From contig CAZHNI010000001.1 in assembly GCA_964533715.1 (NCBI GenBank), positions 5,514 through 69,513 of the forward strand: 64,000 nt of DNA, in the 5' to 3' direction. The position numbers were made by a program, and so were the translations under genes. A model generated the notes under the pieces. It worked only from the letters and a program-made list of their open reading frames with translations, was not told where the DNA came from and ran no database searches. Source of the DNA: an uncultured Gammaproteobacteria bacterium. GTDB taxonomy: Bacteria; Patescibacteriota; Patescibacteriia; Magasanikbacterales; GWA2-37-8. This document shows, in pieces, positions 19,405-61,875 of the stretch. Positions within the stretch are counted from its first letter, which is position 1; the number at the start of each line of letters is the position of its first letter.

Positions 19405-19475
19405 GCGGGTATAGTATAGTGGTAATATGTAACCTTCCCAAGGTTAAGCGACGGGTTCGATTCCCGTTACCCGCT
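19405..19475 (+). tRNA. tRNA-Gly (anticodon CCC)
   Basis: Acceptor GCGGGTA/TACCCGC, anticodon stem TAACC/GGTTA with loop TTCCCAA, T-arm ACGGG-TTCGATT-CCCGT, discriminator U; CCA not encoded. Confidence 0.75.
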
Positions 19476-20004
19476 CATTAAAAATCCCCCGCAGTATGAG
19501 CGAGGGATTTTAGTTGTTTATTTTTTAAGACTCTTTGGTTTCATCCAGTAATTTTTACGACGGAATTTTTTTGTTTTTCGTGCCAAGGAGTGGGCTTTTT
19601 TAGTATTTTTTTTGGCGTGTTTTAAACGAGAGCGCAAGGCTGTGTTCATAAGATGATTATTTAAAAGTTTGGGTATAATAGCAGATTATCTTTAAAAATG
19701 CAAATTTTGCTTAGTCAAGCAAAAACTTTTCATTAAATTTTAAATTATTATTCGAGTAATTTAATTACCTAACCGTTGGTTGATACTCAGAATAGTACAC
19801 CTATAAAGTACACCTATACTTGACACCTGTAACAAATTGGTGTAGGCTTGTTTTGCCAAACTCCTGGCTTTTTTTGTTACCCAATTCGCCGCACCGCGCA
19901 TGTGGTGGGTAGGGAACAGGGGAACCACGGAGTTACAACCACGGGCCGCGCACGGCTGCGCGCGCCCACATCCCGCTACGCGAAAGGCGGGAGGAGGATT
20001 GACC

Positions 20005-21513
20005 ATGTTGCATCGCTGGTTCGTCACGATCGTGGCGTTCGCCTTGGCCCTGGGCCTCGGCAGCGCCGTCAACATCAACGTCAACAGCAACCGCCCCGTC
20101 CTCGGCGCCATCGTCGGCGTACTGGGTGAGGGGGTGGCGGCCGCGCAGGTGCCGACCAACTACCGGTTCTTCAACGGCACCGGCGTGAACGGCCAGCTCG
20201 GCCAGCCCTACACGCAGGGCGCTCAGTCGGCGCTCAAGGTGCGGATCGAGAAGGTGTGGCCCACCATCGCCAAGCGGCACCAGAATGCCCTGGAGTATTA
20301 TGGGGTAATGGCCAACACCAACTGGTTCAGGAACAACTCCGGTCCGCAAGGGGAGTACTGGTTCGTGGCGGGGATCTTCCGCCAGCTCACCAAGATCCCG
20401 CTGGACGACCGAAACAAGACAAACGAGGCACTGGTGGGAAAGATCTCATCGGATCCTGACTATGTCGACTCGCTGATGATCATGAACAAGACCGGCGCGC
20501 TCATCAGCGGTGGGTACGTGGGCGAGGTGCACGTCTATTTCGGCGATGTGAAGGGTGGGTGCACGCCGAACGCCCTGGCCTACTACTTCTCTCCCCCTGA
20601 CATTTCGGGGATGAAGGTAGTCGGAGTTGTGCTCTGCGGAGACGACGGCGTCCGGGTGGCCAACTTGCCAACCGACTTCGGTGGTTTCGATACTACCCTG
20701 GAAAGCATCTTCGTCCACGAGTTCGCGCATGCCGTCGACGACGTACACAAGGCAACCACAGGCAATGAGCTGAACATCTCGGATATCATGGAGATGGATC
20801 GGTCCTGCATCCGGGTCTACGGGTTGAAGGGGATCTTGGCGTTGGTGGGGAACTCGGCCTACGATCCGCTCACGTATCTCGATCTGCGAACCATCGCGGA
20901 TTGGTACCCGATCTGGGTGTCGGTGATCAACTACAATTACGATGCTTCGAAGCAGATACTGGTCGGGATGAACGTGGCGGGCGGGTCGTGCGGAGGTGTG
21001 CAAGACGATGTCGGGACGTGCAAGAACGGGCAGACCCCCGTTGCCGCTTGCGGCGGCCTCCCCATCGGCGACGCCGGCACCCCTACCGACGGGGGCATAG
21101 CACCCCTCGACCTCGGCGGCAGCTTCAGAACCCCTTGCACCTCCGACTCGCAGTGCGCCAGCAAGGTGTGCCAAGACGGCCTTTGCCGCAGCCCGTACTG
21201 CGGCAACGGAGTTTTGAACCGCGTGGGTGTCGGAGGAGGCTCCGGTGAGTCCGACATTGACTGCGGAGGGGAGGAATGCGGCAGGTGCGCCGATGGCAAG
21301 AAGTGCTTCGCGGCCACCGACTGCAAGTCCGGCGTGTGCACCGGCGGCAAGTGCGCGGGGGGCGGTGATGTCCAGGGCGGCTGCGATGTCGGCACCGGAC
21401 GCGGTGACCGCAACTGGGGCGCCATTGTGCTCCTGCTCGCTGTGCTCCTCATCTTTTCGTCGGCCATCGCCGCTTGGCGGCAGTTCGAACGGAAGCAAGG
21501 GCGTCGCACCTAG
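20005..21513 (+). CDS. secreted, C-terminally membrane-anchored zinc metalloprotease-like protein with a Cys-rich stalk
   Basis: RBS GGAGGAGG 8 nt upstream of ATG 20005. Signal peptide MLHRWFVTIVAFALALGLGSA. HEFAHAVDDVH, an HExxH motif with a third His at metzincin spacing. Repeated CxxGxC modules (CGNGVLN, CGGEECGRC, CKSGVCTGGKC), a C-terminal TM helix and a basic tail. Confidence 0.6.
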   Translation: MLHRWFVTIVAFALALGLGSAVNINVNSNRPVLGAIVGVLGEGVAAAQVPTNYRFFNGTGVNGQLGQPYTQGAQSALKVRIEKVWPTIAKRHQNALEYYGVMANTNWFRNNSGPQGEYWFVAGIFRQLTKIPLDDRNKTNEALVGKISSDPDYVDSLMIMNKTGALISGGYVGEVHVYFGDVKGGCTPNALAYYFSPPDISGMKVVGVVLCGDDGVRVANLPTDFGGFDTTLESIFVHEFAHAVDDVHKATTGNELNISDIMEMDRSCIRVYGLKGILALVGNSAYDPLTYLDLRTIADWYPIWVSVINYNYDASKQILVGMNVAGGSCGGVQDDVGTCKNGQTPVAACGGLPIGDAGTPTDGGIAPLDLGGSFRTPCTSDSQCASKVCQDGLCRSPYCGNGVLNRVGVGGGSGESDIDCGGEECGRCADGKKCFAATDCKSGVCTGGKCAGGGDVQGGCDVGTGRGDRNWGAIVLLLAVLLIFSSAIAAWRQFERKQGRRT

Positions 21514-21543
21514 TGCCCCCCACGTGAAGTAAAATCATCCGCA

Positions 21544-21590
21544 CCCCGGCCAACCCGGCCGCGTGCGCGGACGAGGTTGGGTTGGCCGGG
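21544..21590 (+). terminator. GC-rich hairpin at the 3' end of the island gene
   Basis: Perfect 11-bp stem CCGGCCAACCC / GGGTTGGCCGG; no T-run (high-GC style). Confidence 0.4.
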
Positions 21591-21668
21591 TAGGCGAGTA
21601 AAATAAAACTAAGAAAAAATGGAGGGGGAGACCGATCGACTCCTCAAATCGATCATCTACAAAAACAA

Positions 21669-25646: not shown

Positions 25647-26510
25647 ATGTATACGTCCGTAACAATTAAACAGTTGCACCACGCACTCCAAGCGCTTGAC
25701 CCATCAGCGCTTGTTTTGTTAGGGGGCAGTTATTTATATGACGAAGCGGTAGAGGAAAGTGATGTTGATTTTTATTTTATAATACCTTCATGGAAGATAT
25801 TTTTTTTAAAGAAATTTAAAAAAATAATTCAGAATTTAAAACAGCGTTTTTCTGGCGTGAATTTTAGTGTTATGATTGTGCCACAATGGCTTCGACGGCA
25901 TGGATACTATATTTATGGAAAAGATGTCAGCGGTAAAATTCATACATGGGAACTCCCAATTTCAATATTAATAAGGAATTGTCTTAAGCTGGCCTATTTT
26001 AATTATTTACGGTCAATGGTGGAACCAAAAAATAAAGAGAGAAATGTTCAGAAAGTAAAAAAGCAACTTGCGGTAGCAGAACTTGCCGCGCAAGGTAAGG
26101 TAGATTTTAAAGAACCAATTTTTTCGTGGAAATATATCAAACGACATTTGGTCTCGTCTGTCATTTCGACCGTAGCGACCAAAGGGAGCGAAGTGGAGAA
26201 ATCGCTTGACTGCAGTGACTCACAGATCAAGGGATTCCTCGACTGCGGCTTCGCCTTCGCTCGGAATGACAACGCGAATGACGGTCTACGGCAAGTGCAT
26301 GGACAATTCCTCCCATATTTTAATTTTTCCTTGTCAAATTATTTGCTTTACAATATTCGTTTTTTGCTCAAAGGCAACCCCTTGTTTCTATTTAGTAATC
26401 CTGATAAAATGGTGTTAGAAAAAATGGTTATTGGAATTGAGCACGAAGAAAAACTCCCAGAATTGTATAAAGAAATAAAAAGAATTGTTTTTCCTGTTAT
26501 TATTTTTTAA
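25647..26510 (+). CDS. nucleotidyltransferase-domain protein with an in-frame palindromic-element insertion
   Basis: LLGGSYLYDEAVEESDVDFYFI matches the pol-beta superfamily GS...DxD signature. Codons ~172-209 are encoded by repeat copy 26159-26271. Confidence 0.4.
   Translation: MYTSVTIKQLHHALQALDPSALVLLGGSYLYDEAVEESDVDFYFIIPSWKIFFLKKFKKIIQNLKQRFSGVNFSVMIVPQWLRRHGYYIYGKDVSGKIHTWELPISILIRNCLKLAYFNYLRSMVEPKNKERNVQKVKKQLAVAELAAQGKVDFKEPIFSWKYIKRHLVSSVISTVATKGSEVEKSLDCSDSQIKGFLDCGFAFARNDNANDGLRQVHGQFLPYFNFSLSNYLLYNIRFLLKGNPLFLFSNPDKMVLEKMVIGIEHEEKLPELYKEIKRIVFPVIIF
26159..26271. repeat. palindromic MITE-like element copy (TIR TGTCATTTCGACCG...CGCTCGGAATGACA), in frame in the nucleotidyltransferase gene
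   Basis: Terminal inverted repeats and internal sub-palindromes are shared with the other copies. Confidence 0.7.
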
Positions 26511-31214: not shown

Positions 31215-32165
31215 ATGATGATAGATACACACGCCCATGCGCACTTTAACGCCTATAAGGATGATATGGACGAAGTAATAGAGCGGAGCCTTGCTAGGGG
31301 TGCTGTTATTAATTTAGTTGGGACCCAAGCAGATACGAGCAAGCGGGCGGTTGAAGTCGCCGAAAAATATGACGGAGTATACGCCACAATTGGTCTTCAT
31401 CCAGAACATCTTTTTTCCAAGTGGGTTGACGAAGAAGAAACCTCTTTTCAATCGCGGGAAGAAAGTTTTGATTATGAGTACTACAAAAGTTTGGCGGTAA
31501 TGCCCAAAGTTATTGGCATAGGGGAGTGTGGGTTAGATTTTTACCGTATTCCCGAAGGTATGACCAAAGAGGCTATGCTCCCTAAACAGGCAGAAGTTTT
31601 TAGGCAGCATATTAATTTATCTCAAGAAACAAACTTGCCGCTGATAATTCATTGTCGTGAGGCGCATGAGGAGATGATTGCCATCCTGAACACGTTCGTT
31701 TCGCTCAGTGTAAACTCCGCGGAGCGTGGTGAAGGACCCCCTCAAAAGCAAGGGGATTATTCGGTCGTCCCGAGCAATTCGGGACTCCCTCAGAATGACA
31801 ATGCAAACAAAAAATTACGTGGCACGATGCACTGCTACACCAGCAGCTGGATTAATGCCCAAAAATATTTAGAAATGGGTTTTTACATTGGTTTTACCGG
31901 CGTTATTACATTTCCTCCCCAAAAAGCGAACCCGCAAGCCCAGGCGGATTTATTGGAAGTTGTTCGTAAGATGCCAGAGGACAGGATACTTTTGGAAACC
32001 GATTGCCCTTATTTATCACCAATTCCATATAGAGGAAAGCGAGGCGAGCCTTGGATGATTGAGGCAACAGCAGCAAAAATAGCGGAACTCCGCGGAATAA
32101 GTTTGGAAGAAACCCTAAGCGTAACAACAAAAAATGCGCGGAACCTTTTTCAGAAAATGGTTTAG
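31215..32165 (+). CDS. tatD: TatD-family metal-dependent hydrolase with an in-frame palindromic-element insertion
   Basis: IDTHAHAH, GECGLDFY, IIHCREAHEE, HCYTSSW and ETDCPYL motifs. About 35 extra residues (VSLSVNSAERGEGPPQKQGDYSVVPSNSGLPQNDNA) between the third and fourth metal-binding motifs are encoded by repeat copy 31697-31798. Confidence 0.7.
   Translation: MMIDTHAHAHFNAYKDDMDEVIERSLARGAVINLVGTQADTSKRAVEVAEKYDGVYATIGLHPEHLFSKWVDEEETSFQSREESFDYEYYKSLAVMPKVIGIGECGLDFYRIPEGMTKEAMLPKQAEVFRQHINLSQETNLPLIIHCREAHEEMIAILNTFVSLSVNSAERGEGPPQKQGDYSVVPSNSGLPQNDNANKKLRGTMHCYTSSWINAQKYLEMGFYIGFTGVITFPPQKANPQAQADLLEVVRKMPEDRILLETDCPYLSPIPYRGKRGEPWMIEATAAKIAELRGISLEETLSVTTKNARNLFQKMV
31697..31798. 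repeat. degenerate palindromic element copy, in frame in tatD
   Basis: Right TIR CCCTCAGAATGACA, left arm degenerate (CGTTTCGCTCAGTG), inner palindrome GTCCCGAGcaatTCGGGAC. Confidence 0.55.
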
Positions 32166-33701: not shown

Positions 33702-33824
33702 TGTCATTCTGAGCCTGCCTCCTGCATGCGCAGGTATGGCGCAGACAGGTGAAATGAAGAATCTTCCTATTATGAAGATCCTTCCCCAAAGGGGTCCCTT
33801 TGGGACGCTCTGCTCAGGATGACA
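33702..33824. repeat. palindromic element copy, intergenic atpE-atpF
   Basis: TIR TGTCATTCTGAGC...GCTCAGGATGACA. Carries the CCTGCCTCCTGCATGCGCAGG and GAAGAATCTTCCTATTATGAAGATCCTTC modules. Confidence 0.75.
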
Positions 33825-34776: not shown

Positions 34777-34884
34777 TGTCATTGCGAGGAGCAAAGCGAC
34801 GAAGCAATCCCCCTGAGTTCAGTGCTCCTGAAAACAAGGGGATCGCCACGTCAGCCGGTGCGAACCGGCTTCCTCGCGATGATA
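34777..34884. repeat. palindromic element copy, intergenic atpH-atpA
   Basis: TIR TGTCATTGCGAGG...CCTCGCGATGATA; shares the GCAATCCCCCTGA core with the rlmN copy. Confidence 0.7.
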
Positions 34885-34904
34885 GCTTTAATCTAATAAA
34901 ACCT

Positions 34905-36716: not shown

Positions 36717-37739
36717 ATGGCAGTAAGTACCAAAACAATTAAACGCCGCATCAAATCAATTTCCAACACCAAAAAAATTACTAAGGCCATGGAGATGATT
36801 AGTGCGGTAAAAATGCGCCGAGCGGTAGCCAATGTTTTGGCTACCCGAAATTATGCTAGCCTGGCTTGGGAAATGCTTAAAGAAATTTCCGAGTACACGC
36901 ACGATGGCCACCATGCACTCTTGCAAAAAAGGCCTGTTAAAAAAATCGGTCTCATTTTAATTACCAGTAACCGAGGGTTGGCTGGCGGTTTTAGCAGCCG
37001 GTTATTGCAGGAAGTAGACAGCTACATAAAAAAAATCACTCATCAAACTGTCATTCCGACGACACGTGCGCTCCGCTCAGTGCAGGCTCCAGAGGAATCT
37101 CTGGCTCATTCGAATGACGGACAGAGATCCCTCGTCGGCGCGAGCCTCACTCGGGATGACAAAGTGCAAATTGGCATTGAAGCCGACATCATTCTTACTG
37201 GTAAGCGCGGCAAAAAAATTTATCATCGTTTTGGGCACACTGTGGTGGCCGAATTTGATAAAGTAGATCTTACCACCAGAATTGAAGAAATTTTACCCAT
37301 GGCCCAGTTGGCGGTAAAAGAATTTGTTGCCGGAACATACGACCAAATTGTAGTGGCGTACATGCATTTTAAATCCGCAATTGAACAAGTGGCCACAGTA
37401 AAACAAATTTTGCCGCTTACGAAAGATTCAATTAAAGAACTGGCCGCCAAAGAAGCTGATGACACTGAAGAAATAGAAGAGAGCACATTTTTGTTTGAGC
37501 CAAACCCGGCGCTGGTGCTTGATGTACTCTTGCCACGTTTGGTTGAAATGCAAATGTATCAGGCAATTTTGGAATCGGACGCCTCCGAGCACAGCGCTCG
37601 CATGATGGCTATGCGAAACGCCAGTGATTCGGCCAGCGATATGATTAAAGAGTTGCAAAACAGCTTTAACAAAGCACGCCAAGCAGCTATTACCCAAGAA
37701 ATTAGTGAAATTGTGGGTGGTGCAGCGGCCCTGGAGTAA
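36717..37739 (+). CDS. atpG: F0F1 ATP synthase subunit gamma with an in-frame palindromic-element insertion
   Basis: Conserved N-terminus (TKTIKRRIKSISNTKKITKAMEMISAVKMRRA) and C-terminus (MMAMRNASDSA...ITQEISEIVGGAAALE). About 38 extra residues (TVIPTTRALRSV...TRDDK) are encoded by repeat copy 37049-37161. Confidence 0.85.
   Translation: MAVSTKTIKRRIKSISNTKKITKAMEMISAVKMRRAVANVLATRNYASLAWEMLKEISEYTHDGHHALLQKRPVKKIGLILITSNRGLAGGFSSRLLQEVDSYIKKITHQTVIPTTRALRSVQAPEESLAHSNDGQRSLVGASLTRDDKVQIGIEADIILTGKRGKKIYHRFGHTVVAEFDKVDLTTRIEEILPMAQLAVKEFVAGTYDQIVVAYMHFKSAIEQVATVKQILPLTKDSIKELAAKEADDTEEIEESTFLFEPNPALVLDVLLPRLVEMQMYQAILESDASEHSARMMAMRNASDSASDMIKELQNSFNKARQAAITQEISEIVGGAAALE
37049..37161. repeat. 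palindromic element copy, in frame in atpG
   Basis: TIR TGTCATTCCGACG...CTCGGGATGACA; inner GAGGAATCTCTGG...GGACAGAGATCC module. Confidence 0.75.
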
Positions 37740-37772: not shown

Positions 37773-38159
37773 ATGGAGGAAAGATATCGTGATTTTACAG
37801 AGCTTGAAGTTTGGCAAAAAGCGCATGAACTAAGATTAAAAGTACGGATTCTTTGCAAATTTCTACCATCTGAAGAAAAATATGGCCTGATCTCACAAAT
37901 TTTAAGATCGTCCGCTTCAGTCGGTGCTAATATAGCTGAAGGTCATGGTAGATTTCACTATCAAGAAAATATCCAATATTGCAGACAAGCAAGAGGATCG
38001 CTAGATGAAACTCGTGATCATCTAATCTATATACGTGACGCTGATTTAATAAGAAAAGTGAGTAGTTTGGAATATTTAGTTAATCTATGTTTACAAATAA
38101 AGGCTTTGTTAAATGGTTATATCGGTTATTTAAAAAAATGTAAACAAGGGCAAGACTAA
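37773..38159 (+). CDS. four-helix-bundle protein (23S rRNA intervening-sequence protein family)
   Basis: Characteristic LEVWQKAHEL...SASVGANIAEGHGR...DETRDHL pattern of the four-helix-bundle/IVS protein family; AT-richer than its neighbours. Confidence 0.6.
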   Translation: MEERYRDFTELEVWQKAHELRLKVRILCKFLPSEEKYGLISQILRSSASVGANIAEGHGRFHYQENIQYCRQARGSLDETRDHLIYIRDADLIRKVSSLEYLVNLCLQIKALLNGYIGYLKKCKQGQD

Positions 38160-42005: not shown

Positions 42006-42070
42006 TGTCATTCCGAGCGAGGCCAAAGGCCGGCGAGAAATCTCTGTCTCAATCAAATGGACAGAGATTT
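42006..42070. repeat. truncated palindromic element copy (left TIR plus AAATCTCTGTCtcaatcaaatgGACAGAGATTT module)
   Basis: TGTCATTCCGAGCGAGGCC left end identical to the helicase copies; right TIR missing. Confidence 0.65.
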
Positions 42071-42075
42071 TTTTC

Positions 42076-42104
42076 TGGACAAATGTTTATATTTGTGCTA
42101 AAAT
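42076..42104 (+). promoter_or_regulatory. sigma-70-like promoter TGGACA-N17-TAAAAT upstream of rlmN
   Basis: Lies between two palindromic-element copies (42006-42070 and 42123-42187). Confidence 0.4.
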
Positions 42105-42122
42105 GAGCAAAAATTATCGAAT

Positions 42123-42187
42123 TGTCATTCTGAGTGAAACGAAGAATCCTCCTATTATGAAGATCCTTCGCTCCGCTCAGGATGACA
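42123..42187. repeat. short palindromic element copy immediately upstream of, and overlapping, the rlmN start region
   Basis: TGTCATTCTGAGTG...CGCTCAGGATGACA with the GAAGAATCCTCCTATTATGAAGATCCTTC module. Confidence 0.75.
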
Positions 42188-42199
42188 GACGATTATCAC

Positions 42200-43411
42200 A
42201 TGACTAAAATTGTCAAAACAATAGAATCCATTCTAGCTAATGAACCCGCCTTCCGCATTAAGCAAATTGAAAAGGCGTGGTTTGATGTGTCCTTAAATTC
42301 GTACGATGAAATTACTACCTTGCCAAAAGAGCTTCGCGAAAAATTAAAAGATATTCCCTGGTTAAGTTTGGAAGTCCACACCGAATTAAAAAGCAAAATG
42401 GATAACACGCGCAAATACCTTTTTAAACTAGGGGATGGGAATTTGATTGAGATGGTCTTGATGGGTCGTATGTCATTGCGAGCCCCGAAGGGGCGCGGCA
42501 ATCCCCCTGATTTGATCGAGGACGTTGACGAGGAGATTGCTTCGTCAGTCGCTGCGACGCTCCTTTCTCGCAATGACACATCGGCGATTGGCCGCGACAC
42601 CAGTGGCGATCGTTACACCATCTGTATTTCATCTCAAGCCGGGTGCCCCATGCGGTGTGCGTTTTGCGCCACGAGCAAAAGCGGTTTTAAGCGTAATCTT
42701 ACCGCCGAAGAAATTATAGATCAATATCGTTTCGCCCAGCGACTACTGGCCAAAGAAAATAATCGGGTGAATAATATTGTGCTCATGGGCCAAGGGGAAC
42801 CGCTGGTAAACTATGAGAACGTAAAAAAAGCGATCAATACTATTTTAAAAAACAGCGACATCGGCTCTACCAAAATAACTCTATCCACTGTTGGTTATGT
42901 GCCCGCCATGGAAAAAATGATAACCGACACCGACTTTCCGCCGGTGCGTTTTGCCTTGTCACTTCACAGCGCTATAGAAGAATCGCGTAAAAAAATTATT
43001 CCAACGCACAAACCAGGGTTTTTGGAATGGCTCGTGAAGTGGGGGAATGCCTACCACGAAAAATTTGGCAACCGCACCCATTTTATTGGTTTTGAGTACA
43101 TTATGTTAAGTGGGGTAAATGATGATGAAGCACATTTGAAGGCACTGATAAAATTGTGCAAACGTTTTCCTATCGTTCGCGTTAACCTCATTCCGTACAA
43201 CACCACCAACGATGCCGGTGAGGTTGATGAAATTAATAAATTGGAAGAACAAATGGGCTCTAATTATCGCATTTTTACCCGCACCCCGCACGAGCTTATT
43301 GAACATTGGCACGAGAGTCTTATGGATGCGGGAATTACGTCCACTATCCGTTATTCGCAGGGGCAGGATATTGCGGCGGCGTGTGGGCAACTCCGGAATA
43401 AAGAAAAATAG
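42200..43411 (+). CDS. rlmN: radical SAM rRNA/tRNA adenosine-C2 methyltransferase RlmN with an in-frame palindromic-element insertion
   Basis: Radical SAM CxxxCxxC (CPMRCAFC), GQGEPL, and a C-terminal catalytic Cys region. About 36 extra residues (MSLRAPKGRGNPPDLIEDVDEEIASSVAATLLSRND) upstream of the cluster are encoded by repeat copy 42471-42578. Start set at ATG 42200, because tracked start 42182 lies inside a repeat. Confidence 0.75.
   Translation: MTKIVKTIESILANEPAFRIKQIEKAWFDVSLNSYDEITTLPKELREKLKDIPWLSLEVHTELKSKMDNTRKYLFKLGDGNLIEMVLMGRMSLRAPKGRGNPPDLIEDVDEEIASSVAATLLSRNDTSAIGRDTSGDRYTICISSQAGCPMRCAFCATSKSGFKRNLTAEEIIDQYRFAQRLLAKENNRVNNIVLMGQGEPLVNYENVKKAINTILKNSDIGSTKITLSTVGYVPAMEKMITDTDFPPVRFALSLHSAIEESRKKIIPTHKPGFLEWLVKWGNAYHEKFGNRTHFIGFEYIMLSGVNDDEAHLKALIKLCKRFPIVRVNLIPYNTTNDAGEVDEINKLEEQMGSNYRIFTRTPHELIEHWHESLMDAGITSTIRYSQGQDIAAACGQLRNKEK
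42471..42578. repeat. palindromic element copy, in frame in rlmN (108 bp, 36 codons)
   Basis: TIR TGTCATTGCGAGC...CTCGCAATGACA. Confidence 0.75.
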
Positions 43412-44257: not shown

Positions 44258-44306
44258 ATTATAGCGTTTTTTGCGATTTGTAAAGCTTACCAAATTACGA
44301 TATACT

Positions 44307-44331
44307 AGTACCACTAAATTGGTACTTTTTT
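44307..44331 (+). terminator. rho-independent terminator
   Basis: AGTACCA-ctaaat-TGGTACT hairpin followed by TTTTTT. Confidence 0.55.
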
Positions 44332-44340
44332 AATTGCGGA

Positions 44341-44370
44341 CAGTGATTCTTCACTGCGCTCAGAATGACA
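44341..44370. repeat. partial palindromic element (right end CGCTCAGAATGACA plus CAGTGAttcttCACTG hairpin) at the helicase start
   Basis: Right TIR matches the family consensus. Confidence 0.45.
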
Positions 44371-44376
44371 GAAAAT

Positions 44377-47300
44377 ATGGGAAAATACTCTTTAAACAAG
44401 GCGCAACGTGAAGCCGTGGAGTATACCAGCGGCCCGCTTTTGATTGTGGCTGGGGCGGGGACGGGAAAGACGACGGTGATTACAAGTAAAATTTGTCGGT
44501 TGATTGAGGAAAAACTCGCCAAACCCGAGGAAATTTTGGCATTAACGTTTACCGAAAAAGCGGCGGCGGAAATGCAGGATAGGGTAGATGAGATAACCAA
44601 TATTGGCTACGCCGATCTCCACATTTCTACCTTCCACGCCTTTTGTCAAAAAATTCTGGAGCGGCATGCCATTGATATCGGCCTCTCCAATTCGTTTAAA
44701 CTCCTCACCGACACGGCGGGCTGGGTTTTGCTCCACAAAAATTTGGATAAATTTAATTTGGATTACTACCGACCGCTCGGCAACCCTACTAAACACATTC
44801 ACGAATTTTTAAAACATTTTTCTAAGTGCAAAGATGAATTAATTACACCGCAGGAATATTTGGAGTATGCGGAAGGTTTAAAATTGAACAATGGACGAGA
44901 CCCCACCCTGCCCTCCCCTTTGCGAAGGAGAGGGGACAAAACCCCCTCCTCTGCAGAGGAGGGGGTAGGGGGAGATCTCGCGGAGGTCGAGCGGCTTACG
45001 GAAATTGCCAACGCGTATCACACGTATAATCAACTGCTTTTGGACAACGCGCTATTTGATTTTGGCGATTTGCTTTTTTATACCGTCAAATTATTTCGCG
45101 AACGGCCGAATGTGCTCAAAATGTTCCAGAATAAATATAAATATATTTTGGTGGATGAATTTCAGGATGTGAACTATTCGCAGTATGAATTAATTAAACT
45201 CCTGGCGGACGCCTCATTGTCATTTCGACCGGAGCCCCAAAGGGGCGAAGTGGAGAAATCCCTGTCTCAATCACGAACGGACAGAGATTCCCTGCCTGCA
45301 CCATGCCTGCGCATGCAGGAGGCAGGCTCGTCGGCCTCCGGCCTCGCTCGGAATGACAATATTGTTGGTCCCAACCTCACCGTGGTAGGGGATGATGACC
45401 AAAGTATTTATGCCTTTCGCGGCGCCAGTGTGGCGAATATTCTAAGGTTTAAAGATGATTATCCAACAGCCAAAGAAGTGGTGCTATCGGAAAATTTTCG
45501 TTCCGGCCAAAAGATTTTGGATGTGGCGTATGAGTCTATTCAGAACAATAACCCGGATCGGTTGGAAGTGAAGTTAAAGATAGACAAGCGACTAAAGGCC
45601 AAAAGGCCATCTGTCATTTCGACGACGAAGGAGAAATCTCTGGCTCACCAAACGATGAATAGAGATTCCCTGCCTGCACCATGCCTGCGCATGCAGGAGG
45701 CAGGCTCGTCGGCCTCCGGCCTCGCTCGGAATGACAATGGGGATGGCGTGGTGATACATTTGCACAAACCAACCGTCGAAGACGAGGTAGCGGCTGTTTT
45801 GGACGAAATTACGCGTATTAAAACGGTTACCGAAGGCGTAACCTGGGATGATTTTGCTATTTTGGTTCGTGCCAACAATCACGCGGATGCGTTTATAAAC
45901 CAACTGCAAACACGAGGCATTCCATACGAATTTTTGGCTTCTAGCGGATTGTATCGTCAACCGATTATTTTGGATTGCATAAACTTTTTTAAACTCCTGA
46001 ATAATTATCACGAATCCAGCGCAATTTATCGACTGCTCTGTTTACCTTTTTTTGAATTTAGAGAAAATGATTTACAAAAAATTACCTTTAATGCCAAGCG
46101 CAAAAGTATTTCGTATTACGAAGCACTCAAACGCGCTCCCGAATTTGATGTGTCGCAAGCAGGGATTAGCGTGTGTGCTAAATTGGTGGAAGTAATTCAT
46201 GCCGGCCTCCAGAGTATGCGTTACGAAAAGCCATCGGTGGTGCTGTATTCATTTTTGGAAAATAGTGGTTACCTCAAATACTTAACACACCAGGAAAACG
46301 AAGGTAAGGGCGATGTGATTCGCCAAATTCATTATTTAAAACAGTTTTTTGATTACATTGCGCAGTATGAATCGGTAACGCCTGAGGCGCATGTGGTCGG
46401 GTTTATAGAGCATTTTATGATGGTAGTGGACGCGGGTGATAAGGGAAGCCTCTACCAGCCGAGCGACACACCGGATTCCGTAAATATTTTGACGGTGCAC
46501 GCCTCCAAGGGCTTGGAATTTCGCTATGTGTTTGTAGTGAATTTGGTAGAAGATCGGTTTCCATCACGCAGTCGCAGTGACGCGCTGGAAATTCCGCTTG
46601 AACTCGTGAAAGAGCAATTGCCGGAAGGCGATAGCCATATTCAAGAAGAACGACGATTGTTTTATGTGGCCATGACGCGCGCCAAGGAACGTTTGTATTT
46701 TACCAGCGCGAGCGATTATGGTGGTACGCGCACAAAAAAGATTAGCCGATTTTTGGCGGAGTTAGATTTTGGTTCTGTCATTCTGAACGGAGCAAAGCGC
46801 AGTGAAGAATCCCTGTCTGCGCAGGCAGGTCTGTCTCAATCACCAACCGACGGACAGGGATCCTTCGCTTCGCTCAGGATGACAAAAAAAGTAAATGAAA
46901 TGAGTGAGCGAGTGTACGAAACGCCAAAAACTTTTTCATTCTCACAATTGCGATCGTACGAAACCTGTCCATATCAATACAAACTGGCGCATATTTTGCA
47001 TATCCCCATGAAGGGCAGTGCGAGTTTTAGTTTTGGTTCCAGCATGCACAACACACTCCAAGCGTTTTATGAACGGGTAATTGAGCTTAACAGTTCCAAA
47101 CAAGTCTCACTTTTTGACACACCCAAACCATCTGTCATCCCGAGCGTAGTCGAGGGATCCCTTTCGCCAACGTCAAGGGATTCCTCCACTCCGCTACGCT
47201 CCGGTCGGAATGACAAAGCGGTGAAAGTACCAGAATTTGAGGAGCTCTTAAAAATGTACGACGCTAAGTGGATTTCGGATTGGTTTAAGGATAAACGCCA

Positions 47301-47790
47301 GCGCGAGGACATGTACAAAAAAGGTAAGGAAATTTTGAAAATATTTTATACTTCGCAAGAAGGCAATTGGAATATTCCAATTGGTTTAGAAAGCTGGTTC
47401 AAAATCAAGGTGGGGGATTATGTGATTAACGGACGTATTGACCGTTTGGATCAGCTCCCCGATGGTACCATTGAAATTATTGACTATAAAACCGGACAGG
47501 GCAAAGATAAATTAACCAGCGACGACAAAGAGCAACTTTTGTTGTATCAAATTGCAGTAGAAGAAATTGCCGAGTTTAAAGCGTACGGCAAACCAAGCAA
47601 ACTTACTTTCTACTATCTCAACGATGATTTAAAAACATCGTTTATTGGTGAACCAAAAGATACTGAGAAATTAAAAGAAAAATTCAAAACCACCATCGAG
47701 AGTATCGTCAAGGGAGATTTTACCGCCACACCCAGTCAATTTATTTGCGGCCGATGTGATTTTAGGGATATTTGTGAGTTTAGAGTATGA
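44377..47790 (+). CDS. UvrD/PcrA-like SF1 helicase fused to a C-terminal Cas4/AddB-like PD-(D/E)xK Fe-S nuclease (AddA-like helicase-nuclease), carrying five in-frame repeat insertions
   Basis: Helicase motifs GAGTGKTTV, DEFQD, VGDDDQSIYAFRGA, TVHASKGLEFRYVF and VAMTRAKERLYF. C-terminal nuclease EIIDYKTG plus QLLLYQIAV, with four Cys (CPYQY...CGRCDFRDIC). Repeat-encoded segments lie at 44899-44975, 45218-45358, 45612-45736, 46776-46884 and 47133-47215. Start set at ATG 44377. Confidence 0.8.
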   Translation: MGKYSLNKAQREAVEYTSGPLLIVAGAGTGKTTVITSKICRLIEEKLAKPEEILALTFTEKAAAEMQDRVDEITNIGYADLHISTFHAFCQKILERHAIDIGLSNSFKLLTDTAGWVLLHKNLDKFNLDYYRPLGNPTKHIHEFLKHFSKCKDELITPQEYLEYAEGLKLNNGRDPTLPSPLRRRGDKTPSSAEEGVGGDLAEVERLTEIANAYHTYNQLLLDNALFDFGDLLFYTVKLFRERPNVLKMFQNKYKYILVDEFQDVNYSQYELIKLLADASLSFRPEPQRGEVEKSLSQSRTDRDSLPAPCLRMQEAGSSASGLARNDNIVGPNLTVVGDDDQSIYAFRGASVANILRFKDDYPTAKEVVLSENFRSGQKILDVAYESIQNNNPDRLEVKLKIDKRLKAKRPSVISTTKEKSLAHQTMNRDSLPAPCLRMQEAGSSASGLARNDNGDGVVIHLHKPTVEDEVAAVLDEITRIKTVTEGVTWDDFAILVRANNHADAFINQLQTRGIPYEFLASSGLYRQPIILDCINFFKLLNNYHESSAIYRLLCLPFFEFRENDLQKITFNAKRKSISYYEALKRAPEFDVSQAGISVCAKLVEVIHAGLQSMRYEKPSVVLYSFLENSGYLKYLTHQENEGKGDVIRQIHYLKQFFDYIAQYESVTPEAHVVGFIEHFMMVVDAGDKGSLYQPSDTPDSVNILTVHASKGLEFRYVFVVNLVEDRFPSRSRSDALEIPLELVKEQLPEGDSHIQEERRLFYVAMTRAKERLYFTSASDYGGTRTKKISRFLAELDFGSVILNGAKRSEESLSAQAGLSQSPTDGQGSFASLRMTKKVNEMSERVYETPKTFSFSQLRSYETCPYQYKLAHILHIPMKGSASFSFGSSMHNTLQAFYERVIELNSSKQVSLFDTPKPSVIPSVVEGSLSPTSRDSSTPLRSGRNDKAVKVPEFEELLKMYDAKWISDWFKDKRQREDMYKKGKEILKIFYTSQEGNWNIPIGLESWFKIKVGDYVINGRIDRLDQLPDGTIEIIDYKTGQGKDKLTSDDKEQLLLYQIAVEEIAEFKAYGKPSKLTFYYLNDDLKTSFIGEPKDTEKLKEKFKTTIESIVKGDFTATPSQFICGRCDFRDICEFRV
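44899..44975. repeat. GC-rich palindromic insert (second class) in frame in the helicase
   Basis: CTCCCCTTtgcgAAGGAGAG and perfect CCCCCTCCTCTGCAGAGGAGGGGG palindromes; encodes PTLPSPLRRRGDKTPSSAEEGVGGD. Confidence 0.5.
45218..45358. repeat. palindromic element copy (141 bp, 47 codons), in frame in the helicase
   Basis: TIR TGTCATTTCGACCGGAGCC...GGCCTCGCTCGGAATGACA. The internal 95 bp are near-identical to copy 45612-45736. Confidence 0.8.
45612..45736. repeat. palindromic element copy, in frame in the helicase
   Basis: TIR TGTCATTTCGACG...CGCTCGGAATGACA; shares ...AGAGATTCCCTGCCTGCACCATGCCTGCGCATGCAGGAGGCAGGCTCGTCGGCCTCCGGCCTCGCTCGGAATGACAAT with copy 45218. Confidence 0.8.
46776..46884. 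repeat. palindromic element copy, in frame in the helicase
   Basis: TIR TGTCATTCTGAACG...GCTCAGGATGACA. Confidence 0.75.
47133..47215. repeat. short palindromic element copy, in frame in the helicase
   Basis: TIR TGTCATCCCGAGCG...CGGTCGGAATGACA. Confidence 0.7.
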
Positions 47791-60569: not shown

Positions 60570-61292
60570 ATGACTACTGAATTAAGTATAGCAGACATTA
60601 AAAAAGAACTCAATGCACAGATTAAGGATCCGGAAACGCTTAAATCTTTGTTGGTTACTACCTTCAAAGGTTTAACCGCGGACACAGCCAAACAAGCCAT
60701 GTTAGAAGGGATGATGCGCGGTTTTACTTTCAAGGACTTTCTCCAGAAAAATGTTTATGCCGTGCCGTTCGGTCAATCTTACAGCCTTGTTACGTCGATT
60801 GATAATGCCAGAAGAATAGGCATGCGCAATGATGTGGTAGGCAAAACAGCCCCAATCTACGAGGAAGAGGTTATTACTACCGGCGAGAAAAAGGTAAACA
60901 AAATCGTTTCGTGCACTGTTACAGTAAAACGCAAAATTAAGGACTACATAGGTGATTTTACAGCGACGGTATTCTTTGATGAGTATAACACGGGACGCAA
61001 CCAATGGGCTTCCAAGCCGCGCACCATGATCGCTAAAGTTGCCGAGATGCACGCCCTGCGCATGGCTTGCCCGGAAGACGCCTCGCAGATGTACCTTGAG
61101 GAAGAATACGAAAAAGAAACAATCGTTGAAGAAGAGATATTTAATCTTGAGGAGCACAAATTAAAATTAGAAGCCTGTAAAAATCTTGAAGAAGTAAAAA
61201 CAGTTTGGGCCTCTTTACCGGCTAAAGCTAAAGGCGAGCTGTTTACACTCAAAGAAGAAATGAAAAAAAAATATGAAAGTCCTAAAGTTTAA
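60570..61292 (+). CDS. recT: RecT-family single-strand annealing protein
   Basis: RecT core including W..KPRTMIAKVAEMHALRMACPED, matching the RecT W-x-P-x-M-x-x-K-x-A motif. Confidence 0.65.
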   Translation: MTTELSIADIKKELNAQIKDPETLKSLLVTTFKGLTADTAKQAMLEGMMRGFTFKDFLQKNVYAVPFGQSYSLVTSIDNARRIGMRNDVVGKTAPIYEEEVITTGEKKVNKIVSCTVTVKRKIKDYIGDFTATVFFDEYNTGRNQWASKPRTMIAKVAEMHALRMACPEDASQMYLEEEYEKETIVEEEIFNLEEHKLKLEACKNLEEVKTVWASLPAKAKGELFTLKEEMKKKYESPKV

Positions 61293-61875
61293 TAACGAGG
61301 AAGCGTGGCTAGAAGCCCGCAAAACTAAAATAACCGGTTCGCGCCTCAAGGATATTGTCGTCAAACGCGGTACAGGGCAAAAAATAGGCTATTACGAGCT
61401 TATTGCCGAGCGTTTGGCGCTTCCACCTAACGGACAAGACCCAATGGACAGAGGGCACGAATTAGAGAAAGAAGCGATGGAGCGGTTTACTAAGGAAATG
61501 GGAAAAAAGGTTGATGGGAGTTTGGTAATTTGGACGCGAGAGGACAACGAAAGTATTGCAATTTCACCAGATGGTTTTATTGGTAAAACCGAGGCCGTTG
61601 AGGTGAAGTGTTTATCATCGGCCCGGCACATTGAAGCGTTTTTAACGCAACAGATACCAGACGAATATCACTTGCAAGTCATTCAATACTTCATCGTAAA
61701 CGACAAACTCAAAACTCTATATTTCTGTTTCTACGATCCGCGTTTATCGGTTAAAGATTTTTTCTATATCACAGTTGAGCGCGAACAAATTAAGGAAGAA
61801 GTTGATAATTATTTGGAGTATCAAAAAAAGATTCTGCAAGAGGTAAACGACATAGTGAACAAGTTGACGTTCTAA
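61273..61875 (+). CDS. YqaJ-like viral recombinase exonuclease (lambda Exo-like PD-(D/E)xK)
   Basis: N-terminal EAWLEARKTKITGSRLKDIV (the YqaJ QGSxEWLxxRxGxxTAS pattern) and a D...EVK catalytic core; overlaps the recT stop. Confidence 0.65.
   Translation: MKVLKFNNEEAWLEARKTKITGSRLKDIVVKRGTGQKIGYYELIAERLALPPNGQDPMDRGHELEKEAMERFTKEMGKKVDGSLVIWTREDNESIAISPDGFIGKTEAVEVKCLSSARHIEAFLTQQIPDEYHLQVIQYFIVNDKLKTLYFCFYDPRLSVKDFFYITVEREQIKEEVDNYLEYQKKILQEVNDIVNKLTF

Follow-up and report, generated by a model that had tools for sequence, protein, structure and literature searches.

Helicase-nuclease gene with five in-frame insertions

The 64-kb stretch of DNA that was analysed as a whole, referred to here as the window, carries on its + strand a helicase-nuclease gene of an uncultured bacterium of the Candidatus Magasanikbacteria (Patescibacteria) into which five in-frame segments of palindromic DNA are inserted (Table 1). 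The longest frame of this gene, 44365..47790, comprises 1141 aa. Its likely start is the ATG at 44377, because the N-termini of the orthologs (MSKY.LNKAQ) align with that codon; the resulting 1137 aa plus stop correspond to the 1138-codon open reading frame (ORF) described in an earlier note on this DNA. The in-frame ATG at 44365 sits within a truncated repeat end (44336-44370) and is probably not the true start. A terminator-like hairpin with a T-run (AGTACCACTAAATTGGTACT TTTTT, 44307-44326) immediately precedes the truncated repeat and the start of the helicase, and a match to a sigma-70-like promoter (44278-44306) is found just upstream of this hairpin.

The encoded protein matches the Pfam families UvrD-helicase (2e-74), UvrD_C (5e-46) and PDDEXK_1 (3e-35), as well as the PcrA structure 1PJR (4e-77). 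According to Foldseek and sequence comparisons, the solved proteins most similar to it are PcrA, UvrD and Rep; AdnB, AddA and RecB come next. The Q motif, Walker A, Ia, II (DExQD), III (GDxDQSIY), IV, V and VI are present in this order, which assigns the protein to the SF1A helicases, and the C-terminal domain possesses the D…(D/E)xK and QxxxY motifs together with one N-terminal and three C-terminal cysteines of a predicted Fe-S site, as in Cas4/AddB-type nucleases. The domain assignment of the earlier note, a complete set of UvrD/PcrA motifs followed by a Cas4/AddB-like Fe-S nuclease, is thus borne out. Among 119 sequences, C864, C1124 and C1133 are nearly invariant (≥90%) and C1127 is found in at least 90%. 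All columns that are invariant among the orthologs (motifs I-VI, D…DxK, QxxxY and the four Cys) are retained, and the gene is intact and functional-looking.

The protein has the same domain order as AddA, AdnB and RecB, namely an SF1A UvrD-like motor and then a C-terminal RecB-family nuclease. Unlike in these proteins, the motor is nearest to PcrA/UvrD, the nuclease bears the 4-Cys set typical of AddB/Cas4, and there is no adjoining gene for a partner subunit, the neighbours being hypothetical genes and dciA. The scores lie far below every NCBIfam equivalog cut-off, as for pcrA (the best, 442 bits vs 911), addA_Gpos (183 vs 708) and recB (141 vs 696). The best database matches are annotated as Candidatus Magasanikbacteria or Patescibacteria, and the usual ortholog has ~975-985 aa. 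There is no sign of an intein or a self-splicing intron: no Pfam intein domain was found in the protein, and Rfam searches of the whole window at gathering thresholds and of 41.5-48.5 kb at permissive E gave no ribozyme match, only tRNAs and chance miRNA-like hairpin matches.

None of the five segments has a counterpart in the closest ortholog, P0003 (975 aa, 80% identity; gaps in a 15-sequence alignment and a codon alignment), which is encoded on the fully syntenic contig L001. The element DNA totals 535 nt or ~178 codons and the net gain over P0003 is 163 codons, so that the figure of about 180 extra codons in the earlier note was roughly right. The note had also spoken of five repeat-encoded in-frame segments; their absence from P0003 agrees with this, with the correction that only inserts 2-5 form one family. 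By alignment to PcrA, with the domain limits described for it in the literature, the inserts fall into domain 1B (insert 1), domain 1A between motifs II and III (insert 2), domain 2A (insert 3), the helicase-nuclease linker (insert 4) and the nuclease (insert 5). None of the five lies in domain 2B, which contradicts the earlier placement between the 1B/2B subdomains. No helicase or nuclease motif is touched by any insert; damage to the core helicase motifs, which had been named as the mark of a pseudogene, was looked for, and all of them proved to be spared. In an AlphaFold2 model built on 119 sequences (mean pLDDT 81.4, pTM 0.80), the five longest coils with pLDDT <50 (aa 184-194, 288-327, 418-455, 818-840 and 919-945) coincide with the five inserts, in accordance with the suggested tolerance of loops.

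As single-stranded DNA (ssDNA), each of the five inserts folds into a hairpin (z-scores -2.7 to -4.7). Insert 1 consists of an outer stem and two CCCCTCC/GGAGGGG-type hairpins; this double hairpin is unlike inserts 2-5, and the earlier note had described it as a GC-rich palindrome class. It is single-copy within the window, and its status as a repeat comes from locus L123, which carries at the same site a homologous element that is built alike but differs in its second hairpin.

Inserts 2 and 3 share an exact stretch of 78 nt; extended to 80 nt, the two copies agree at 79/80 positions, and over 109 nt they are 90% identical. The near-identical core noticed earlier is therefore real, its length of ~95 bp being slightly generous, and both copies encode the same peptide, RDSLPAPCLRMQEAGSSASGLARNDN, as had been stated. 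The identity begins within the element, and the orthologous copy at site 3 in locus L002 has an identical left arm and a different right half. Of the two origins proposed for the core, recent transposition and gene conversion, conversion between two resident copies fits the 78-nt identity better than a fresh transposition, because the identity starts inside the element and the L002 copy shares the left arm only. Elsewhere in the window (60570-61875), adjoining genes for a RecT-family protein (PF03837) and a YqaJ-like exonuclease (PF09588) make up a phage-type single-strand annealing pair, which may be relevant to repeat-mediated gene conversion in this genome.

Hairpin family within the window

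Inserts 2-5 belong to a hairpin family with the termini TGTCATTCYGAGCG...CGCTCRGAATGACA, which begin and end with the inverted TGTCAT.../...ATGACA and are referred to below as terminal inverted repeats (TIRs). Its members consist of an arm, TGTCATTCYGAGCG-n-AGCGARGAATC, a variable loop and the complementary arm, often with small palindromes nested inside. We scanned the window with the terminal 14-mer, allowing up to 3 mismatches, and compared the result with shuffled sequence: 23 matches were found vs 3.7 expected, a number reached in none of 100 shuffles. The window contains ~14 copies, ~9 of them intragenic. Ten copies fold as long hairpins (ssDNA z -2.4 to -5.3), and the GC content of the elements is 0.55-0.66 vs 0.41 for the window. 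The smallest copy (65 nt) is made up of the two arms and the loop alone; larger copies are mosaics with nested mini-palindromes. One of these, a 36-nt module (CCTGCC…GGCAGG), recurs in inserts 2 and 3, and the intergenic copy at 33702 has it in the opposite orientation. The window ORFs scanned yielded no transposase Pfam family, no RAYT was found in the 64-kb window, and a scan for intrinsic terminators revealed no sense-strand terminator within the TIR elements. A scan for GC islands as a generic insert detector was dropped as too unspecific.

Most intragenic TIR-family copies have one open sense frame out of three and stops in the other two, and the gene uses an open frame every time. Every intragenic copy also restores the reading frame, and no gene in the window is split by an element. 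This is what purifying selection on translated sequence predicts, and the inserts would accordingly be read as part of the proteins. Open repeat frames can also create spurious N-terminal extensions in annotations, as at the helicase ATG 44365 and at atpA, whose mechanically called ORF begins at TTG 34776 solely because the repeat copy at the atpH/atpA junction is open in that frame (…LPRDD); the true atpA start is probably an ATG ~43 codons downstream.

Table 1. Features of the helicase-nuclease gene and members of the TIR family in the window
Feature	Position	Strand	Size or basis
Helicase-nuclease CDS: UvrD/PcrA-type SF1A helicase with C-terminal Fe-S PD-(D/E)XK nuclease	44377..47790	+	1137 aa
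Walker A / motif I (AGAGTGKT), intact	44449..44472	+	ortholog alignment
Motif II (DEFQD), intact	45154..45168	+	ortholog alignment
Motif III (GDDDQSIY), intact	45388..45411	+	ortholog alignment
Motif V (TVHASKGLE), intact	46492..46518	+	ortholog alignment
Motif VI (VAMTRAK)	46666-46686	+	ortholog alignment
Cys864, putative 4-Cys Fe-S ligand set together with CxxCx5C	46966-46968	+	
Nuclease catalytic motifs GRIDRLD and IIDYKTG	47431..47496	+	Pfam, ortholog alignment
Nuclease motif QLLLYQ	47533-47550	+	ortholog alignment
C-terminal CxxCx5C cysteines	47746..47775	+	ortholog alignment
Insert 1: GC-rich double hairpin (CCCTCCCC…GGAGAGGG and ACCCCCTCCTC…GAGGAGGGGGT), separate class, domain 1B	44899..44975	+	aa 175-200
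Insert 2: composite TIR-family element between motifs II and III	45218..45358	+	141 nt, aa 281-328
Insert 3: TIR-family element past motif IV in domain 2A	45612..45736	+	125 nt, aa 412-454
Insert 4: TIR-family element in helicase-nuclease linker	46776..46884	+	109 nt, aa 800-836
Insert 5: TIR-family element in nuclease domain, between first Fe-S cysteine helix and catalytic core	47133..47215	+	83 nt, aa 919-947
Identical stretch, first copy, candidate gene-conversion tract	45283..45360	+	78 nt, exact match
Identical stretch, second copy, same reading frame	45661..45738	+	78 nt, exact match
TIR-family copy, in-frame in nucleotidyltransferase-domain gene (25647-26510)	26159..26271	+	
TIR-family copy, left end degenerate, in-frame in TatD (31215-32165)	31680..31800	+	
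TIR-family copy, intergenic, upstream of atpF	33702..33824	.	
TIR-family copy at atpH/atpA junction, creating spurious N-terminal extension of atpA ORF	34777..34888	.	
TIR-family copy, in-frame in ATP synthase gamma, AtpG (36717-37739)	37049..37161	+	
Two intergenic TIR-family copies: truncated (~42006-42075) and minimal (42123-42187, 65 nt)	42006..42187	.	
TIR-family copy, in-frame in RlmN (42182-43411); orthologous copy in L123, empty site in L001	42471..42578	+	
Truncated right half of TIR-family element (…CTTCACTGCGCTCAGAATGACA), ends 6 nt before helicase start codon	44336..44370	.	

Recurrent insertion at the same loops in orthologs

We compared 120 orthologs of the helicase-nuclease. Their length variation is confined almost wholly to five gaps between conserved anchors, which are the loops that hold the inserts, and other segments of variable sequence have a fixed length. 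At these five loops, 69 insertions of at least 12 aa were identified in 46 of the 120 orthologs, and only the window gene has all five loops occupied. The insert peptides of the orthologs show all three frames of the left arm (VIxS…, CHSE/CHPE… and SFRP/SSRAE…) and both open frames of the right arm (…RNDN/QDDK and …LRMT). The use of all three TIR frames, together with shifted entry points, points to many independent insertion events. The sole insertion outside the five loops is a 361-aa intein (Hint/intein Pfam domains) within helicase motif III (GDDDQ|S) of ortholog P0021 (1344 aa).

RlmN and AtpG show independent insertion of the same kind. Within 15 kb of L001 there is no match to the repeat terminus, vs 0.34/kb in the window. 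In RlmN, the window copy has an ortholog in L123; locus L124 possesses an independent one, displaced by four codons, and the site is empty in L001. In AtpG, the window and L123 carry copies of different subfamilies in this loop, at positions that differ by five codons. The two orthologous RlmN copies are unequal, since the inner stem of the one in L123 is perfect and that of the window copy contains three mismatches, which indicates decay and not maintenance.

In the AtpG of L123, a related genome (GCA_009694865.1; 2475-3560), repeats are inserted in-frame at two places. A TIR-family copy sits in the loop that also holds the window copy, and an insert of the CCCCTCC type (…PSPRGEGNSDDPSSSKGEDEGGGLRAL…) sits in another loop, of which the window protein has a short version. 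The helicase of the window is 80% identical to that of L001 and 60% to that of L123, and its flanking genes are nearer to L123 than to L001 (RlmN 86% vs 80%, ABC transporter 78% vs 63%, DciA 42% vs 32%). This gene-tree conflict suggests either allelic replacement or recombination of the helicase among Magasanikbacteria, or an accelerated rate in L123.

Occurrence of the hairpin in other phyla

A scan across phyla with a strict pattern and one genome per species yielded at least 120 loci (L003-L122). The matches listed include Acidobacteriota, Bacteroidota, Verrucomicrobiota, Chloroflexota, Gemmatimonadota, Armatimonadota, Nitrospirota, Planctomycetota, Ignavibacteria, several Proteobacteria, Bacillota, Abditibacteriaceae and Saccharimonadales. 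Thus, the same hairpin is found in at least a dozen other bacterial phyla and, among the matches listed, it is extragenic there, with arms of ~27 nt that are nearly identical between phyla and loops that vary. The count of intragenic copies in these phyla is effectively 0/127 among the matches listed, vs ~9/14 in the window; three seemingly intragenic copies were rejected since they lie in spurious open frames of high-GC DNA or upstream of the real start. In viral contigs of IMG/VR, only 3 matches to the hairpin were found, and phages are therefore no obvious vector.

In 130 copies with perfect TIRs, flanking direct repeats of k = 2-9 are no commoner than expected by chance (k=2, 7 vs 8.1; k=3, 3 vs 2.0), hence there is no sign of a target-site duplication (TSD), and none is evident in the window copies. 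In the 120 loci listed, which are genome fragments, no pair of TIRs 0.4-3.5 kb apart encloses a transposase-sized ORF that would mark a parent insertion sequence (IS); the candidate parent elements turned out to be adjacent small copies or degenerate DNA, for example at L074. Four pyrimidine/purine (Y/R) positions, an outer and an inner one in both arms, read T,A,T,A in 71, C,G,C,G in 23 and are mixed in 2 of 96 canonical copies. Either a REPIN-like hairpin of each arm (cruciform) or two ancient subfamilies would explain this covariation equally well. The same 96 copies, taken from the matches listed, show a weak flank preference for Y at -1 and R at +1.

Literature searches, incomplete in their coverage, found no relevant paper for the DNA arms and the typical encoded peptides, and nothing relevant that links bacteria of the candidate phyla radiation (CPR) with intragenic repeats of the kinds discussed in the next section. 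A phmmer search with the 37-aa peptide of insert 4 against 1.8 billion representatives gave no hits, the query being too short to reach significance.

Comparison with known palindromic repeats

The Rickettsia palindromic elements (RPEs) are palindromes of ~100-150 bp inserted in-frame in many unrelated housekeeping genes of a small, reduced genome, and their segments are translated and have been judged compatible with the protein fold (Ogata et al. 2000, as summarised in PMC10969869). The window palindromes resemble RPEs in lying in-frame, at structurally permissive positions of functional ORFs, in a host with a small genome. They seem to differ in their sequence family: a search of NCBIfam, a collection that includes RPE domain models, with the five insert peptides gave no match at E up to 1, a separation that concerns peptide models and not RPE DNA. 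Unlike RPEs, they occur in a CPR host and not in Rickettsia, belong to a family that is widespread and extragenic in at least a dozen phyla, form mosaics with nested mini-palindromes, and strike the same five loops recurrently among orthologs.

Repetitive extragenic palindromic sequences (REPs) also occur within ORFs, where a gene often has several of them and they often form inverted dimers. They show a preference for replication and repair genes, notably of the uvrA/uvrB type, and were regarded as neutral insertions into proteins of modular build (Di Nocera et al. 2013; PMC3733652). The window palindromes are likewise found inside ORFs, several per gene, in a repair gene. In contrast to REPs, they have the termini TGTCAT…ATGACA without a GTAG or CGTC tag (as defined in PMC3733652), which puts them outside the described REP superfamilies; their arms are longer (~27 nt), the host gene is a PcrA-like helicase-nuclease, and no associated RAYT was identified. 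REPINs are hairpin-forming REP doublets that are vertically inherited, lineage-specific and served by a cognate single-copy RAYT (Bertels & Rainey 2011; PMC3116915). The window family is similar in having two inverted arms that form a long hairpin around a variable spacer, in a possible ability of each arm to form a small imperfect hairpin (ATTCY…RGAAT), in the lack of a TSD and in its extragenic location outside CPR, and dissimilar in that its arms are nearly identical between phyla and most copies of the window genome are intragenic.

[quoted passage not shown] Unlike MITEs, the 130 perfect copies show no TSD, which argues against a classical DDE MITE. No parent IS was found in the 120 loci listed. 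Taken together, the elements belong to a known kind, palindromic repeats inserted in-frame in protein-coding genes as in RPEs and intragenic REPs, of which they represent a new member.

Origin of the insertions and alternative explanations

The most plausible explanation, which we consider probable, is selfish palindromic DNA filtered by selection into permissive loops, combined with gene conversion between copies. Under this scenario, short, GC-rich, non-autonomous palindromic elements would have invaded the helicase-nuclease gene repeatedly. They would land, or be copied by recombination, throughout a compact genome that is ~90% coding, and purifying selection would retain those copies that fall into indel-tolerant surface loops, restore the frame and are free of stops. 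The retained copies would be transcribed and translated as extra disordered loops that leave the catalytic core undisturbed, presumably as neutral passengers, and would later degenerate or trade segments through gene conversion, for which inserts 2 and 3 provide a candidate case. As the route of mobilisation, HUH/RAYT-like and recombinational copying are both conceivable.

Several points weigh against this scenario. No transposase, RAYT or parent IS was found in the window or in the 120 listed loci, and it is from the distribution of the copies that we infer mobility. Frame and stop-codon statistics are likewise the only grounds for translation. Insert 1, being single-copy in the window, might be an ancient loop specific to the lineage and not a mobile repeat. 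As the loops are both lysine-rich and A-rich, a target preference is inseparable from tolerance. Finally, the sequence is a metagenome assembly.

The concentration of copies in one repair gene bears on a different explanation, namely that the inserts are adaptive, either as protein loops exapted for interaction or regulation or as mRNA or DNA hairpins that regulate a repair enzyme. Of the 9-10 intragenic copies, 4-5 lie in this gene, which makes up ~6% of the coding sequence (binomial P ~1e-3 to 1e-4). The significance of this excess, the published occurrence of intragenic REPs in replication and repair genes of other bacteria (PMC3733652), and the strong hairpin potential that persists in all five inserts speak for a function. 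However, the closest orthologs have no inserts, the ortholog inserts at the same loops are unrelated elements read in other frames into unrelated peptides, the inserts are predicted to be disordered, the older orthologous RlmN copy is decaying, and the five sites are the only indel-tolerant loops of the protein. We therefore regard an adaptive role as improbable. No evidence for a functional role of the concentration was found, and the five indel-tolerant, lysine-rich and A-rich loops sufficiently explain it without one; a preference of the elements for A-rich targets or for palindromes that are already present (nesting) may contribute. The view of the earlier note that repair helicases are preferred hosts is thus upheld as a statistic with published precedent, and the functional meaning that it had considered is superfluous, the loops being enough.

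Three further explanations are less likely still. The hairpins might remain untranslated because they are either cut out of the mRNA or skipped by the ribosome. In mitochondrial genes of Magnusiomyces, GC-rich byp elements are passed over by ribosome bypass, as is the gap of T4 gene 60, and GC-rich hairpin inserts in an AT-rich genome resemble the byp case; CPR bacteria are moreover known for excised insertions in rRNA. Against this, all intragenic copies are in frame and stop-free in the frame used, which skipping would not impose, no Rfam intron or ribozyme was found in the window, and no matching take-off and landing codons were noticed, though none were specifically looked for; excision or bypass is accordingly very unlikely.

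The inserts could also be an assembly artefact, that is, chimeric repeats from community members or collapsed repeats, given that the same hairpin termini are found in many co-occurring phyla, that the contig is metagenome-assembled and that the exact protein is present on one contig only. Such an origin is hardly credible, because five separate in-frame, stop-free chimeras in one 3.4-kb gene are implausible, related inserts are found in these loops in assemblies that were made independently from other samples (L002, L123 and L124), and the longest identical stretch, 78 nt, is shorter than typical reads. A decaying pseudogene that happens to keep an open frame, to which the heaviest insertion load among the 120 orthologs might point, is highly improbable in view of the ORF uninterrupted for 1137 codons, the conservation of all family-invariant residues and catalytic motifs, the 80% identity to an insert-free ortholog and the confident core of the AlphaFold model.

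Beyond the selfish insertion of the elements in this gene, we tentatively propose, as a possibility that falls short of being probable, that the TGTCATTCYGAGCG…CGCTCRGAATGACA hairpin represents an undescribed cross-phylum family of TSD-less palindromic elements, with arms near-identical from Acidobacteriota to Patescibacteria. As parts of the same proposal, the elements may move by a conserved mechanism that acts on single strands (HUH-like) or through recombination, may be gained by horizontal transfer, with host or community DNA as a conceivable source, and may be extragenic in ordinary genomes and mainly intragenic in the gene-dense genomes of CPR. If so, the hairpins would systematically seed permissive loops of essential proteins (AtpG, RlmN, TatD and the repair helicase) with disordered segments.

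Proteins of CPR/Patescibacteria are often longer or otherwise odd in comparison with their homologs. If repeat-derived in-frame loop insertions are common in this group, they would affect gene calling through spurious N-terminal extensions (atpA, helicase), homology annotation through missed equivalog cut-offs, structure prediction and estimates of protein novelty. The insertions also provide a natural experiment that maps where a PcrA-like helicase-nuclease, ATP synthase gamma and RlmN can accommodate 25-50 additional residues in their loops, and a new example of selfish DNA inside protein-coding genes, first described in Rickettsia. How elements with near-identical arms in at least a dozen phyla spread without a TSD or a known transposase is a testable question.

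Other features of the window

Downstream of tRNA-Gly (19405-19476), a 1.7-kb block (19876-21607) has a GC content of 0.60-0.67, compared with 41% for the window, and may represent a horizontally acquired gene or an assembly chimera. Its ORF 19900-21513 (537 aa) has no Pfam match and shows a signal-peptide-like N-terminus and a HEFAH zinc-protease-like motif; its C-terminal part comprises a Cys-rich region and a hydrophobic anchor. Within the ATP synthase operon, atpG and atpD are separated by a gene (37773-38159) whose product belongs to the '23S rRNA intervening sequence protein' family (PF05635, 1.7e-30); in the syntenic L001, atpG adjoins atpD without this gene. Finally, ORF 15909-16481 matches the Translin family (PF01997, 1e-14), which is mainly eukaryotic and archaeal.

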